From positions 11,016 through 75,015 of the forward strand of contig DVNX01000113.1 of the NCBI GenBank assembly GCA_018714045.1: a stretch of 64,000 nt of DNA, read 5' to 3'. Of this stretch, positions 1,349 to 55,733 are shown in pieces; position 1 is the stretch's first letter; each line of letters starts with the position of its first letter. Source of the DNA: Candidatus Ornithoclostridium faecavium (GTDB taxonomy: Bacteria > Bacillota > Clostridia > Christensenellales > UBA3700). The notes under the pieces are model-generated. The model ran no database searches, was not told where the DNA came from, and saw nothing but the letters and a program-made list of their open reading frames with translations. The translations under genes were made by a program, and so were the position numbers.

Positions 1349-4060
<2,712 letters not shown>

Positions 4061-4070
4061 TTACCGCGAA

Positions 4071-5600
4071 TCACTCCCATTCAACCGTCGCGGGCGGCTT
4101 CGAGGTGATGTCGTAGACGACTCTGCCGACAGTCCTCACTTCGTTGGTTATTCTGCTGCTCGCCCTTTCGAGTACCTCGTAAGGCAGGCGCGTCCAGTCC
4201 GCGGTCATGAAGTCGTCCGTAGTGACCGCTCTGAGCGCCACCGTATATCCGTAAGTCCTCGCGTCGCCCATAACGCCCACGCTTCTGGTGTCGGTGAGCA
4301 CCGCAAAGTACTGATTCGTGACACGCTCGAGTCCCGCGTTCACGACCTCTTCTCTGAAGATCGCGTCCGCCTCTCTCAGCGTATCGAGTTTTTCTTTGGT
4401 TATCTCCCCGATAACTCTTATCGCGAGACCGGGACCCGGGAACGGCTGACGCCATACGAGATCCGCGGGGATACCCAGCTCAGTGCCCACCGCGCGCACT
4501 TCGTCCTTGAACAGCTCGCGCAGCGGTTCTATTATCTCGTCGAAATCTATAACGCTGGGCAGTCCGCCGACGTTGTGATGGCTCTTTATCGTCGAAGCGT
4601 CGCCCGCGCCGCTCTCTATCACGTCGGGGTAAATGGTACCCTGTACGAGATAGTTCACCTTGCCAATCTTCTTAGCCTCGCGCTCGAAAACGCGTATGAA
4701 TTCTTCGCCTATTATCTTGCGCTTCTTTTCGGGTTCGGTTACCCCTTTGAGCTTTTCGAGGAACAGATCCTCTACGTTCACTCTTATTATGTTTATGTCG
4801 AAACGCTTTTTGAAAGTGCGCTCCACCATGTCTCCTTCGTCCTTTCTCAGCAGACCGTGATCGACGAAAACACAGGTAAGGTCGGATCCTATCGCCTTGT
4901 GCAGAAGCACAGCCGCGACCGACGAATCAACGCCGCCCGAAAGCGCGCACAGCACTTTTTTGCCCTTGAGCTGCTTTGCATACTTTTCGACCGCCTCTTT
5001 AGCAAAGTCCGACATCTTCCAGTCGCCCGAACACTTGCATATCGCGAAAAGGAAGTTGTGAAGCATTCTCTTGCCGTATACCGTATGTGTGACCTCGGGG
5101 TGGAACTGCACCGCATATATGCTCTTTCCGTCGCTCATCGCCGCGCACGGGCAATGCTGAGTAGTCGCGGTGACGGTAAAGCCGTCGGGCACGCGCTTTA
5201 TATAGTCGGTATGGCTCATCCAGCATATACTCTTTTCGGGTACTCCCTCGAACAACGGGTCGTCTTTGACTGAAAGCTCTATCTTGCCGTATTCGCCCAA
5301 AGCGCCCGCGCTGCATATTTCGCCGCCCGTAAGCCACGCGGTCAGCTGCGCGCCGTAACATATCCCCAGTACGGGAATGCCCAATTCAAGCACTTTTTTG
5401 TCGCAATGCGGCGACTTTTCGTCGTAAACGCTGTTGGGTCCGCCGGTAAATATAATGCCCTTGTAACCCTGCGCGGCTATCTCTTCCGCGGTGATCTTGT
5501 TGTACGGTTTTATCTCGGCGTACACGTTCTGTTCGCGCACTCTGCGCGCAATCAGCTGGTTGTACTGTCCGCCGAAATCGAGTACCAGAATTTTTTCCAT
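4071..5600 (-). CDS. guaA: GMP synthase (glutamine-hydrolysing)
   Basis: Starts [20 protein letters not shown], has the SGGVDSS PP-loop and ends TVEWE. Start moved to the ATG at 5600 (GAGAGG SD upstream); the track start at 5615 is a TTG. Confidence 0.95.
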
Positions 5601-5633: not shown

Positions 5634-7211
5634 TTATTTTCCGCTGTCGCCGTAGTTGGAAAGCACTCTCGCGGACGGGTCGGATACGTCGCAGCCCTTC
5701 CAGCTCTTGTTGGGCATCCAGAAGTCCTTTATCATCTCTCCCTGCCCCGGATAGTACTTTTCGAATATCTCTCTGTACAGCAGCGATTCTTTGGTGAACG
5801 GGCGCGCGTGCGCATGCCGCGCGCGTCTTTCTTCATATTCTTTATCCGAATAATACCCGCCAGCGTACTCTTTCAGGTAGTCGACCATCGAGTGCCCTAC
5901 CGCGTCAGAAAAAGCCGCTTTTTCTCTCATCAGTATATCGTAAGGGAGCCAGTCTCCTTCGAAAGCCTTTCTTAAAAGGTACTTGCCCTTTCCGTAGACG
6001 TTCATCTTTATCGCGGGATCGAGGCTCATCACGTATTTCACGAAGTCGAGGTCTCCGAAAGGAACTCTCGCTTCGAGAGAGTTTACCGATATGCACCTGT
6101 CCGCGCGGAGCACGTCGTACATATAAAGTTCTCTCAATCGCTTCTGGGCTTCCTTCTGAAATTCCTCTGCGCTCGGCGCGAAATCCGTATACTTATAGCC
6201 GAAAAGCTCGTCCGATATCTCTCCCGTCAGAAGAACTCTTATATCCGTCGTCTCGTGTATCGCCTTGCACACCAGGTACATTCCGATGCTGGCGCGCACC
6301 GTCGTTATATCGAAAGTTCCCAGTATCTTTATTACCGTATCGAGTGACGCGAGAACTTTTTCCTTGTCTATTATGACCTCTGTATGTTCGCTGCCGATAT
6401 AGTCCGCGACTTCGCGTGCGTATCTTAAATCTATCGCGTCGCCGCTCATGCCTATCGAAAAGGTCTTTATCGGCTTATCGCTCTTCTTAGCCGCGACCGC
6501 GCATACCAGCGAGGAATCAAGTCCGCCGCTCAGAAGAAATCCTACTTTCGCGTCCGCGACAAGGCGCTTTTCTATGCCCGCTACCAGCTTTTCGCGGATA
6601 TTCTTGCAGGCTTCATTGACGCCGTCTTTGCTTACTTCTTCCGCCGCCGCGATATCGCAGTATCTTACGAACTTGTCGCCGTCGTAGTAGCACCCGGGAG
6701 GAAACGGCGTTATTTTGTCCGTAAGTCCTACGAGGTTTATCGCCTCGCTCGCGAACATTATCGCGCCCGTTTCGTCATAGCCGTAAAAGAGCGGTCTTAT
6801 CCCTATCGGATCCCTTGCGGCGATAAACTTGCCGCGCTTTGCGTCATATATCACTAAGGCGTATTCCGCGTCCAGCATAGCGAACATATCCGTTCCGTAC
6901 TCCTTATAGAGAGGCAGGAGCACCTCGCAGTCCGAATCGCTTTTGAACGCATACTTGCCTTCAAGCGCCTTTCTGAATTTATCGAAGCCGTATATCTCGC
7001 CGTTGCATATGAGATAATCTCCGTCAAGGCTGAACGGTTGCATACCGTCGGGCGTAAGTCCCATTATAGCCAGTCTGTGAAAGCCCGTCAGCCCCGCGCC
7101 GATATCGATCACACGGCTGTCGTCGGGTCCTCTCGACACTGTGCGGGAAAAGCCTTCGTCGAATTTTTCCCGCGGCGCGTCCTTTCGGCAATATGCCATT
7201 ATCGAACACAT
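5634..7211 (-). CDS. asnB: asparagine synthetase (glutamine-hydrolysing), class II Ntn amidotransferase
   Basis: 525 aa with N-terminal Met-Cys (MCSI...) and the SGGLDSS PP-loop. GGAGGGG SD lies inside the end of glnN. Confidence 0.9.
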   Translation of the reverse strand: MCSIMAYCRKDAPREKFDEGFSRTVSRGPDDSRVIDIGAGLTGFHRLAIMGLTPDGMQPFSLDGDYLICNGEIYGFDKFRKALEGKYAFKSDSDCEVLLPLYKEYGTDMFAMLDAEYALVIYDAKRGKFIAARDPIGIRPLFYGYDETGAIMFASEAINLVGLTDKITPFPPGCYYDGDKFVRYCDIAAAEEVSKDGVNEACKNIREKLVAGIEKRLVADAKVGFLLSGGLDSSLVCAVAAKKSDKPIKTFSIGMSGDAIDLRYAREVADYIGSEHTEVIIDKEKVLASLDTVIKILGTFDITTVRASIGMYLVCKAIHETTDIRVLLTGEISDELFGYKYTDFAPSAEEFQKEAQKRLRELYMYDVLRADRCISVNSLEARVPFGDLDFVKYVMSLDPAIKMNVYGKGKYLLRKAFEGDWLPYDILMREKAAFSDAVGHSMVDYLKEYAGGYYSDKEYEERRARHAHARPFTKESLLYREIFEKYYPGQGEMIKDFWMPNKSWKGCDVSDPSARVLSNYGDSGK

Positions 7212-53869: not shown

Positions 53870-53993
53870 ACGGTTTTAAAATATTATTCAGATCTTTACC
53901 GATTTTTCAAGGTAAAAATTTACAGCGCCGAAAAGGATAAAACAAGCGGCGCGTAACACAATATAAACAGCCTGAAAAAAGGAGGTTAAAGTG

Positions 53994-54110
53994 ATGAAGA
54001 AAGCTAATCAGACCAAGCAGAAAGCAGGTCGCGCTCAGCAGACTAAGAACTGCGGTAAGATGTGCGGCGGCAAGTGCTGCAACGAAAGCGGACACAATCA
54101 GAACGACTGA
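53994..54110 (+). CDS. unannotated 38-aa basic, Cys-rich micropeptide
   Basis: AAGGAGG SD lies 8 nt upstream of the ATG. Translation is MKKANQTKQKAGRAQQTKNCGKMCGGKCCNESGHNQND*. Codon choice resembles the neighbouring highly expressed genes. The track lists only the antisense ORF. Confidence 0.5.
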   Translation: MKKANQTKQKAGRAQQTKNCGKMCGGKCCNESGHNQND

Positions 54111-54271
54111 CGTGTTTTAAGGCTAAGCGACGTTGCTTCCAAATAGCAAACCGTCGTGAAAAACGGCGTTAAAACGTCTTTTAAAACGATTTGAAGCATA
54201 TATTTTGCAATTCAAAACGGATTTATGGACAAAACGGTTGAATAAAATTTTCATTATTCATCAGACGCCGT

Positions 54272-54360
54272 AAAAAAGAAAGAGAGCTATCCGATTCCTC
54301 GGATAGCTCCCTTCCTTTATTATATGATAAGGGGGAAAATTATGAGCTCTTTTATTTACA
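54272..54360 (-). ncRNA. candidate ~90-nt small RNA (orphan promoter-terminator unit)
   Basis: Bounded by a consensus-like promoter (54395..54367) and an 11-bp GC-rich hairpin with a GGAA loop followed by TCTTTCTTTTTT. Contains a UUUUCCCCCUU tract. No ORF and no downstream same-strand gene. Confidence 0.45.
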
Positions 54361-54366
54361 GTTTGC

Positions 54367-54395
54367 ATTTTATCACCGACTTAAAATTTTGTCAA
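54367..54395 (-). promoter_or_regulatory. sigma-A type promoter of the candidate sRNA
   Basis: Minus strand has TTGACA, a 17-nt spacer, then TAAAAT. Confidence 0.5.
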
Positions 54396-54545
54396 CAGTT
54401 TTTTACAACTTTTTTAAAAAATTTTTTATCGGTGCTTTTCGCTCTGTTTTTTGCATACTTTTATTAAAAGAGTATTAAAAATATGCACATTTTAACACGC
54501 TTAGCCCTCAAAAATCGGGTAATCGTGTATTATTACCAACCGTTT

Positions 54546-55733
54546 TTACAGCACTCCTCTCTTCTTCAGGAAATTTTCTATCCTGTCCATCGCCTTTTTC
54601 AGGTTTTCGAGAGAATATGCGTAGCTTATCCTTATAAAGTTCTTTCCCGACTCCCCGAAAGCGCCGCCCGGAACTACCGCGACTTTCTGATCCGCGAGCA
54701 ATTCTTCCGCGAACTGTTCTCCGTCCATACCCGTAACGGACACGCACGGGAACACGTAAAACGCGCCCTTAGGTTCGAAACAGGTCAGCTTCATCTCGTT
54801 AAGTCTCCTGACAAGAAATCTGCGCCTTATATCGTACTGACTTCTCATCTCCTCGACCGCCGCGAAATTGTCTTCGAAAGCGGTATTGAGCGCGTTGAGC
54901 GCCGCGTACTGAGCAGCAGTCGGCGCGCACATTATGATATATTGATGGATCTTGAGCATCTGTTTCGACAGCTCTCTCGGCGCGCAGTAATACCCCAGTC
55001 TCCAACCCGTCATCGCGAACGCCTTGCTGAAACCGTTGATGAGCACGGTGCGCTCTCTCATGCCGTCGAGAGATGCGACAGAAACGTGTCTTTCGTCGCC
55101 GTAGGTAAGCTCAGCGTAGATCTCGTCCGATATCGCGATCAAGTCGTGCTTTTTTATGACTTCCGCTATCGCTTCCAGCTGAGGTCTCGTCATTATCGCG
55201 CCCGTCGGATTGTTCGGAAACGGCAGTATCACCGCTTTCGTACGCGGAGTTATCGCAGCTTCGAGAGCTTCCGCAGTAAGAATAAAATTGTCCTCTGCCC
55301 TGCACGGCGCGCTTACGGGCACGGCGTCGCAAAGCGCTACGCCGGGAGCGTAAGAAACGTAAGACGGCTCAGGGATTATCACCTCGTCGCCCGCGTTGGC
55401 AAGAGTCCTGACCGCGAGGTATATCGCTTCGCTCGCGCCCACGGTCATTATCACCTCGTCCTTCGGGTCGTACTTTACGCCGAAATGCAGATCGACGTAT
55501 TTCGCGACCGCCTCTCTCAGCTGCAACAGACCGCTGTTGGACGTATACTGAGTTATGCCCTTTCTTATGCTTTGTACCGCCGCTTCTCTCGCTTCCCACG
55601 GCGTGACGAAATCGGGTTCGCCTACGCCCAGCGAGATGACGTCCTTATACATAGCCGCCACGTCGAAAAACTTTCTTATACCCGAAGGCTTGATATTCTT
55701 TACGACGTCGCTCACGTGTTTGTCGTAATTCAT
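54546..55733 (-). CDS. class I/II pyridoxal-phosphate aminotransferase (aspartate aminotransferase-like)
   Basis: 395 aa with an SKAFAMTGWRLGY PLP-lysine context. Coupled (ATGA) to the Lrp gene. Confidence 0.85.
   Translation of the reverse strand: MNYDKHVSDVVKNIKPSGIRKFFDVAAMYKDVISLGVGEPDFVTPWEAREAAVQSIRKGITQYTSNSGLLQLREAVAKYVDLHFGVKYDPKDEVIMTVGASEAIYLAVRTLANAGDEVIIPEPSYVSYAPGVALCDAVPVSAPCRAEDNFILTAEALEAAITPRTKAVILPFPNNPTGAIMTRPQLEAIAEVIKKHDLIAISDEIYAELTYGDERHVSVASLDGMRERTVLINGFSKAFAMTGWRLGYYCAPRELSKQMLKIHQYIIMCAPTAAQYAALNALNTAFEDNFAAVEEMRSQYDIRRRFLVRRLNEMKLTCFEPKGAFYVFPCVSVTGMDGEQFAEELLADQKVAVVPGGAFGESGKNFIRISYAYSLENLKKAMDRIENFLKKRGVL

Follow-up and report, generated by a model that had tools for sequence, protein, structure and literature searches.

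Setting and anatomy of the locus

The window analysed here is the whole 64-kb stretch (64,000 nucleotides, nt) of contig DVNX01000113.1 from Candidatus Ornithoclostridium faecavium, and our subject is a predicted small RNA (sRNA) gene on its minus strand. The gene lies in an intergenic island (54111..54545) of 435 bp with a G+C content (GC) of 32.6%, compared with 50.7% for the window. Its neighbours on the minus strand encode an ABC-F ATPase, an AsnC/Lrp regulator and a class I/II aminotransferase. Convergent with these, on the other strand, are an open reading frame (ORF) for a Lys/Cys-rich protein of 39 amino acids (aa) and an M1-peptidase-like gene. No gene lies downstream of the sRNA on the same strand in the window. 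The island contains the following elements.

54396..54427, minus strand: A+T-rich tract AAAAAATTTTTTAAAAAAGTTGTAAAAAACTG, directly 5' of the -35 hexamer; a possible UP element
54367..54395, minus strand: sigma-A-type promoter with -35 hexamer TTGACA (54395..54390), 17-nt spacer, TG (54375..54374) and -10 hexamer TAAAAT (54372..54367)
54272..54362, minus strand: predicted small RNA of about 88-91 nt, with its 3' end in the U-run
54323..54347, minus strand: invariant 25-nt core GCUCAUAAUUUUCCCCCUUAUCAUA, with a C tract at 54329..54339
54275..54318, minus strand: intrinsic terminator hairpin with 5' arm 54318..54299, loop GGAA 54298..54295 and 3' arm 54294..54275, followed by the U-run to 54272

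Most of this layout had been proposed in an earlier note made from the sequence alone, which read the locus as an orphan promoter and terminator enclosing a candidate C-rich sRNA. The promoter described there, TTGACA-17-TAAAAT at 54395..54367, is present; it agrees with the consensus at 11 of 12 positions and has in addition the TG one base 5' of the -10 hexamer that makes an extended -10. The perfect 11-bp hairpin (54309..54284), about 50 nt downstream of the promoter, is likewise present, and it lengthens to a 20-bp stem with a U-run when the predicted 91-nt RNA is folded. The view that the RNA holds no plausible ORF agrees with the lack of any ATG, GTG or TTG in those 91 nt, and the claims of an AT-rich island of about 430 bp and of no same-strand gene downstream (the 39-aa ORF and the M1-peptidase-like gene both being on the plus strand) also hold.

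Promoter-like matches are frequent in this AT-rich region (9 observed versus 3.9 expected), so the sequence match alone is weak evidence, and conservation in other genomes is decisive. A/T runs resembling AAAAAATTTTTTAAAAAAGTTGTAAAAAACTG are also found 5' of the -35 hexamer in four relatives (L001, L091, L092 and L094), where, as in the window, they might act as UP elements. The 5' end of the predicted RNA was set from the position of the -10 hexamer and is accurate to about 3 nt. The fold of the 91-nt RNA has a minimum free energy of -31.8 kcal/mol (z = -4.45), a stability reached by 0 of 200 shuffled sequences, and leaves the first 44 nt unpaired. The A-rich 5' flank of the terminator pairs with the U tract, which gives the hairpin the shape of a bidirectional terminator, and its plus-strand reading was also listed as terminator-like.

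The core occurs once in the window. Its reverse complement, UAUGAUAAGGGGGAAAAUUAUGAGC, reads as a generic translation start: a G-rich Shine-Dalgarno sequence (AAGGGGG), a 6-nt A/U spacer and AUG. The C tract, UUUUCCCCCUU, had been called a near-perfect anti-Shine-Dalgarno sequence. That description is apt for a GGGGG-type Shine-Dalgarno, with which the five consecutive C residues (C5) pair perfectly, and fails for GGAGG, against which there is a C-A mismatch.

Conservation at orthologous loci

The first conservation search was anchored on the neighbouring aminotransferase, with orthologues located via a protein database, and was therefore independent of the RNA sequence. Five orthologous loci, with aminotransferases 94, 91, 82, 75 and 73% identical in amino-acid sequence to that of the window, all carry the unit of promoter, core and hairpin downstream of the gene; the 91% locus (L001) belongs to the closest species-level genome, an uncultured Christensenellaceae metagenome-assembled genome (MAG). 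The block (A)GCTCATAATTTTCCCCCTTATCATATAA is identical across the five loci, while its flanks have diverged; within the clade of the window, identity spans 54320..54349. The -35 hexamer and a TGnTAnAAT -10 element are kept at 17-nt spacing while the sequence between them changes, and the hairpin has been substituted yet still pairs. One locus (L095) accommodates 40 additional nt between start site and core, and another (L094) has a different downstream neighbourhood without the Cys-rich ORF.

At loci of aminotransferase homologues with 67% identity or less, the unit was not found. Possible diverged copies of the sRNA beside 79 other aminotransferase homologues were also considered; none was credible, and the candidate at L023 (27 bits) is a mere terminator. 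The five synteny-anchored loci are the sole conservation evidence free of the bias that comes with selection by exact core match.

Breadth of the family in metagenomes

Metagenome contigs were then scanned for the exact 21-mer ATAATTTTCCCCCTTATCATA, which matched at least 120 contigs. Together with the earlier loci, this gives at least 135 instances of the core: 100 in an sRNA-type setting, 31 at the start of one gene (see Target searches) and 4 in other coding contexts. The 100 sRNA-type instances among the matches listed, from metagenomes of gut and digesters, fall into 36 distinct sequence types, and the core is identical in all of them. In nearly all, TTGACA or TTGACG is followed after 17 nt by TAnnAT, in most cases with TG; the spacer sequence varies, whereas the hexamers and the 17-nt spacing hold in nearly all of the 36 types. 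A short, predicted non-coding transcript is thus bounded by its own promoter and a Rho-independent terminator in nearly all types, and the conservation of the promoter-hairpin unit, which the earlier note had proposed as a check and whose lack in relatives it would have taken as a refutation, is found well outside the clade of the window, in the form of a promoter, a 25-nt core and a covarying terminator.

The predicted full-length RNAs are 69-116 nt long (median 95). Many begin with GUAA(A/U); the 5' part is variable, and the longer members carry a 5' hairpin there. The RNA of the window is a short form without this hairpin. In some members the U-run is short or interrupted.

Where the neighbouring proteins have a named source, it is a Christensenellaceae, Eubacteriales, Clostridia or Firmicutes MAG, and the GC of the host loci ranges from 31 to 60%. 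The gene upstream of the sRNA differs between types (aminotransferase, TrxB, MnmG or GlmM) and is co-oriented with it in most; downstream, a convergent gene faces the sRNA in most types, the window's included, and neighbours vary by type. A thioredoxin reductase gene (CAxC active site) lies at most 3.5 kb from the sRNA in 13 of the 36 types (for example L130, L116, L202 and L123), in several orientations. The commonest type adjoins spore-germination genes; in this type (L211) a co-oriented gene begins about 60 nt past the hairpin. On one contig (L131), the sRNA unit is 2 kb downstream of a complete 16S rRNA gene (1785..3288); there is no 23S rRNA gene in the remaining 3.7 kb, and this may be an unlinked rRNA operon.

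The plasmid collection searched gave chance fragments only. A phage-borne copy was considered on account of the lone match in the phage database (L220; MT835718.1, 8797..16825) and rejected: the entry is labelled UNVERIFIED 'Bacteriophage sp.' and looks like bacterial chromosome, with YpeB-/SleB-like germination genes and genes for a thioredoxin reductase, a deacetylase, a phosphatase and an antiporter alongside a complete sRNA unit.

RNA structure, covariation and predicted accessibility of the core

A covariance model (R1) was built from nine clade members (alignment A1), in which 8 of the 17 hairpin pairs show compensatory changes. The window scores 93.6 bits against this model (E = 1.5e-16), and all 44 of 44 representatives are recovered at 43-98 bits. 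In contrast, the gene-start site in rnfC and one coding-context site (L105) are not recovered, and another coding-context site (L113) reaches just 30.8 bits.

In the family alignment guided by the model (A3), 97.2% of cells form standard pairs, compared with 56.3% in shuffles and 45-51% when pairing partners are slid. Double changes are seen in all 17 hairpin pairs, and compensatory cells number 292 versus 73 in shuffles. Single-sequence folds, which do not depend on R1, place a near-perfect hairpin of about 14-22 bp 0-5 nt 3' of the core in every representative. The sequence of the hairpin differs across types yet its pairing is kept, and the element has the makeup of an intrinsic terminator: a G+C-containing hairpin directly followed by a U-run, with the structure held by covariation.

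For the core, folding predicts a single strand, with a mean unpaired probability of 0.90 over 43 representatives (at least 0.7 in 41 of the 43, and 0.93 in the window), so that the family has a conserved seed region predicted to be accessible, in keeping with the exposed C-rich tract that the earlier note described.

Comparison with known RNA families

A cmscan search with Rfam 15 gave no match at the gathering level in the whole 64-kb window, and found no tRNA, riboswitch or leader there. Between 53900 and 54600, searched at E <= 10, there is only sub-threshold noise (for example rli60, 26.6 bits against a cutoff of 60), and neither RsaE (RF01820) nor ylbH/CsfG is in that list.

In Firmicute sRNAs, C-rich single-stranded regions pair with Shine-Dalgarno sequences and inhibit translation initiation; the C-rich region of RoxS, for instance, pairs with G-rich Shine-Dalgarno regions at the ribosome-binding site and blocks formation of the initiation complex (PMC4409812). 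Like RsaE/RoxS of the Bacillales (RF01820), the window RNA would be of the trans-acting type of about 90-110 nt with its own promoter and Rho-independent terminator (both predicted here from sequence), and it has an unpaired C-rich sequence and a seed conserved across wide phylogenetic distance (PMC4409812). The comparison with RsaE/RoxS made in the earlier note is thus useful as an analogy. It does not extend to kinship: there is no match to the RsaE model, and in place of the several C-rich regions of RsaE, CRR1-4 (PMC4409812), the window RNA has a single C5 tract within its invariant block of 25 nt. Unlike in RsaE/RoxS, moreover, the complement of the core includes the start codon, and the family is found in Christensenellaceae-like Clostridia, not in Bacillales.

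FsrA has three C-rich regions; neither to it nor to other C-rich Bacillus and Staphylococcus sRNAs is the window RNA related in sequence. CsfG (the 'ylbH leader' motif of endospore formers) is transcribed by forespore sigma factors, whereas the promoter in the window is of the housekeeping TTGACA/TATAAT type. CsfG shares with the window RNA its conservation among spore-forming Firmicutes, highly conserved CU-rich single-stranded sequence and the want of an assigned target (PMC3574147, PMC4152353); the position of the commonest family type beside spore-germination genes is a further likeness. It differs in its length of about 136 nt and in having several CU-rich stretches, placed in loops and between the helices (PMC3574147), while the window RNA is about 90 nt long with one single-stranded block. 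The C-rich-region sRNAs of Bacillales (RsaE/RoxS, FsrA and CsfG) are the closest functional analogues; the window RNA is a member of none of these families.

Target searches

Targets were sought in the 64-kb window and, around related loci, in about 1.6 Mb of flanking sequence. The 31 gene-start instances among the matches listed all fall at the start of rnfC (TIGR01945, 423 bits) in the gene order apbE-rnfC-rnfD-rnfG, on contigs whose source names place them in Ruminococcus bicirculans. Here (L101 2672..2694, minus strand, and some 30 further contigs) 23 nt that take in the Shine-Dalgarno sequence, spacer and AUG are perfectly complementary to the core, and the predicted duplex has an energy of -37.8 kcal/mol. 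The rnfC starts of four relatives (RnfC 83-65% identical) lack the long match and give -13 to -19 kcal/mol, although they rank 1st, 4th, 5th and 9th among 34 genuine start regions.

For lack of the long match in these relatives, rnfC was rejected as a general target; in addition, the perfect site is confined to R. bicirculans among the matches listed, and no sampled sRNA type resembles that species: none of the named sRNA hosts is a Ruminococcus, and the tetranucleotide signatures of all sRNA types correlate weakly with those of the R. bicirculans loci (r = 0.18-0.63). By our own estimate, a 21-mer of this composition should match by chance from less than once to a few times in about 10^12 bases, and two further unrelated non-sRNA contexts also match it. 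The R. bicirculans match is probably a coincidence; alternatively, the site could be the target of an unsampled copy of the sRNA, and we treat it as a lead, not a finding. A lone perfect "target" from a search on the scale of metagenomes can be coincidental.

The genes of the recurrent neighbours TrxB, MnmG and GlmM were also tried as targets and set aside, as their start regions pair with the core at background level. Against the 16S rRNA of an sRNA-bearing organism the core gives -17.9 kcal/mol, which is not special (-18.8 +/- 2.3 for shuffled cores), and its complementarity to tRNAs is not beyond chance.

Interpretation

Gene architecture, conservation, covariation of the terminator and predicted accessibility of the core can all be seen directly in these comparisons, and the pairing of promoter and terminator very probably marks a genuine conserved sRNA gene. 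It belongs to an sRNA family so far uncatalogued, in uncultured Christensenellaceae-like Clostridia. These bacteria are widespread, mostly uncultured gut anaerobes; in the literature searched, no paper contains the core sequence or describes any regulatory RNA or sRNA from Christensenellaceae-like bacteria or Christensenellales.

For its function, our preferred reading, with a probability of roughly 0.6, is that of a trans-acting sRNA that pairs its core with translation-initiation regions and blocks ribosome binding. The strong housekeeping-type promoter would drive a stand-alone minus-strand transcript of about 90 nt, made up of a short 5' segment (a 5' hairpin in many relatives), the unstructured invariant 25-nt core with C5, and the long Rho-independent terminator. 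The exposed core could then base-pair in trans with initiation regions bearing a G-rich Shine-Dalgarno sequence; such pairing would occlude the 30S subunit, repress translation and possibly trigger decay of the mRNA. Start-region targeting is favoured because the core complements a generic start exactly, from Shine-Dalgarno sequence through 6-nt spacer to AUG. Between the two modes proposed in the earlier note, trans-acting or cis-antisense, the first is favoured; the second suffers from the absence of the 39-aa ORF from most loci of the family.

Several results weigh against start-region pairing in trans. The prediction of targets for the C-rich core, also proposed in the earlier note, yielded no convincing candidate: the window contains 12 weak sites compared with 8.2 +/- 4.9 in shuffles, and none stands out; the 724 flanking start regions (median -7.5 kcal/mol, 1st percentile -19.1 kcal/mol) contain no recurrent target family; and no gene family flanking the sRNA loci pairs consistently with the core. 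The sole perfect target site is in R. bicirculans, whose signature no sampled sRNA type has. The C5 tract is mismatched to GGAGG, which is the dominant Shine-Dalgarno sequence in the start regions examined. Invariance over 25 nt exceeds a typical seed, and the partner could be a protein or something else that is conserved. The strength of the conservation evidence is also to be read with care: the metagenome sample was chosen by exact core match, so that core invariance there is partly built in, and alignment A3 was fitted to the model and hence favours the structure.

One alternative accepts the RNA as real and has the core mainly docking a conserved protein (as a sponge, by titration) or pairing with another non-coding RNA. 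The invariant stretch of 25-29 nt, held over hosts of 31-60% GC, goes beyond the usual seed length, and no recurrent mRNA target was found in the flanking sequence searched, a negative that covers flanking genes. Still, the core has no special complementarity to 16S rRNA or tRNAs, contains one G only and hence no GGA motifs of the CsrA type, and start-region targeting is the simplest account of an exact complement to Shine-Dalgarno sequence, spacer and AUG; we consider this alternative improbable, if the most serious of those weighed here. Somewhat less probable again is a reading in which the core is the recognition element of a conserved cellular partner. This partner might be a protein with a role in translation, or else the ribosome, for which the core would mimic the complement of a start region. 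It would suit a predicted single-stranded core of 25-29 nt that is identical across lineages of 31-60% GC whose flanking proteins are only about 40% identical. If it were true, this would be an order-wide, housekeeping-type regulatory RNA specific to Christensenellales-like Clostridia, with a standing like that of 6S RNA rather than that of a niche sRNA.

The remaining alternatives place the function somewhere other than in an RNA acting in trans. The conserved object might lie on the plus strand, where AAGGGGG-N6-ATG would open an ORF (54324..54467) for a small, hydrophobic product, possibly a type I toxin whose antitoxin would be the minus-strand RNA. The complement of the core does offer an ideal ribosome-binding site, spacing and start codon, and the ORF in the window stays open for 41-47 codons and encodes a Phe-rich, hydrophobic product, so that the arrangement recalls type I toxin-antitoxin antisense RNAs, in which a small RNA lies opposite a ribosome-binding site, an ATG and a short hydrophobic-looking ORF. 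The defining conserved toxin ORF is missing, however. Across 43 representatives, the ORF from this AUG encodes between 2 and 131 aa (median 17; 6 codons or fewer in 13 of the 43), and nothing is conserved past Met-Ser; apparent residue conservation within the clade falls just where the minus strand has its promoter hexamers and A/T tracts. There is no conserved plus-strand promoter either, and a plus-strand transcript would first have to cross the hairpin. Thus, the constraint acts on the strand that carries the promoter and terminator, coding potential is absent on either strand, and a small protein or toxin as the family-wide function is contradicted and highly improbable. A regulatory role on the 39-aa Cys-rich ORF (53991..54110), as a cis-antisense RNA or a shared convergent terminator, is suggested by the convergence of the two genes, 174 nt apart, and by the A-tract/U-tract symmetry of a hairpin that is terminator-like on the plus strand too. 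Only L001, L091 and the same species, which are the closest relatives, have that ORF downstream; it is missing there in L094 and in most of the 36 types, whose neighbours differ entirely, and the invariant core is outside any overlap with it; such a role is quite unlikely.

It is also conceivable that there is no separate RNA gene: the hairpin would merely terminate the AsnC-aminotransferase operon, the promoter match would be accidental, and the conserved block would belong to the 3' untranslated region (UTR) of the operon. Promoter-like matches are, as noted, frequent in the island. In addition, no convincing terminator of the operon's own was found in 54496..54548 on the minus strand (fold z = -0.54), and the upstream gene is co-oriented in most types; for these two reasons the operon probably ends at the sRNA hairpin too, in the clade of the window, and there may be a long 3' UTR isoform with the sRNA sequence inside. 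A hairpin shared with the operon would not conflict with a separate sRNA promoter, however, and behind four different upstream genes almost all of the 36 types retain both hexamers exactly 17 nt apart, together with the TG. Such retention in the face of drifting spacer sequences typifies a functional promoter with an independent start, which makes a terminator without an RNA gene very unlikely. The least credible of the alternatives is a cis-regulatory 5' leader (attenuator or riboswitch) or a site acting at the DNA level in recombination (dif or att). The commonest type, L211, with its co-oriented gene about 60 nt past the hairpin, would fit a leader, and a weak dyad symmetry in the core (CATAA...TTATC) would fit a DNA site. 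However, the downstream gene is convergent in the window and most types, so the conserved co-oriented gene expected of a leader is lacking, and a DNA site needs neither a promoter at a fixed position nor a covarying hairpin with a U-run; given the variable neighbourhoods, both ideas are contradicted. A hybrid contig (L111) at first resembled an att junction. The mobile-element att site it suggested was rejected, as the contig has 3x coverage and its join at 6224..6246 falls exactly on the shared 23-mer; it is probably an assembly chimera of the R. bicirculans rnf locus and the sRNA locus of another organism, formed via this short repeat.

With a genuine sRNA gene as the preferred reading, the gain is a well-supported and widely distributed family with a defined promoter, seed and terminator. 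Covariance model R1 permits annotation of the family in MAGs, and the 25-nt seed is specific enough for target prediction and metatranscriptome look-ups. If the seed does block G-rich ribosome-binding sites, the C-rich anti-Shine-Dalgarno mechanism of the Bacillales would extend to a distant clostridial order.

Neighbouring features

The Lys/Cys-rich ORF that converges on the sRNA gene in the window is as follows.

53991..54110, plus strand: 39-aa Lys/Cys-rich ORF MKKANQTKQKAGRAQQTKNCGKMCGGKCCNESGHNQND, with a strong GGAGG ribosome-binding site

No Pfam family matches this ORF. L001 and L091 conserve it, with Cys residues in a comparable pattern, and several assemblies annotate it as a gene of 38 aa.

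The spacer just 3' of the terminator contains a 16-mer, CCGTTTTGTCCATAAA (54222..54237, minus strand), that is retained in L001 and L091 despite the divergence of the sequence around it. On the plus strand, the motif AAAACG(G) repeats about five times within 54140..54260. Downstream of the sRNA gene in L094, at about 4130..4470, there are three direct repeats of about 100 nt (…caaaactgctttgcacagaaagcttccg.cagcaaaa…gtcggaatttt…).

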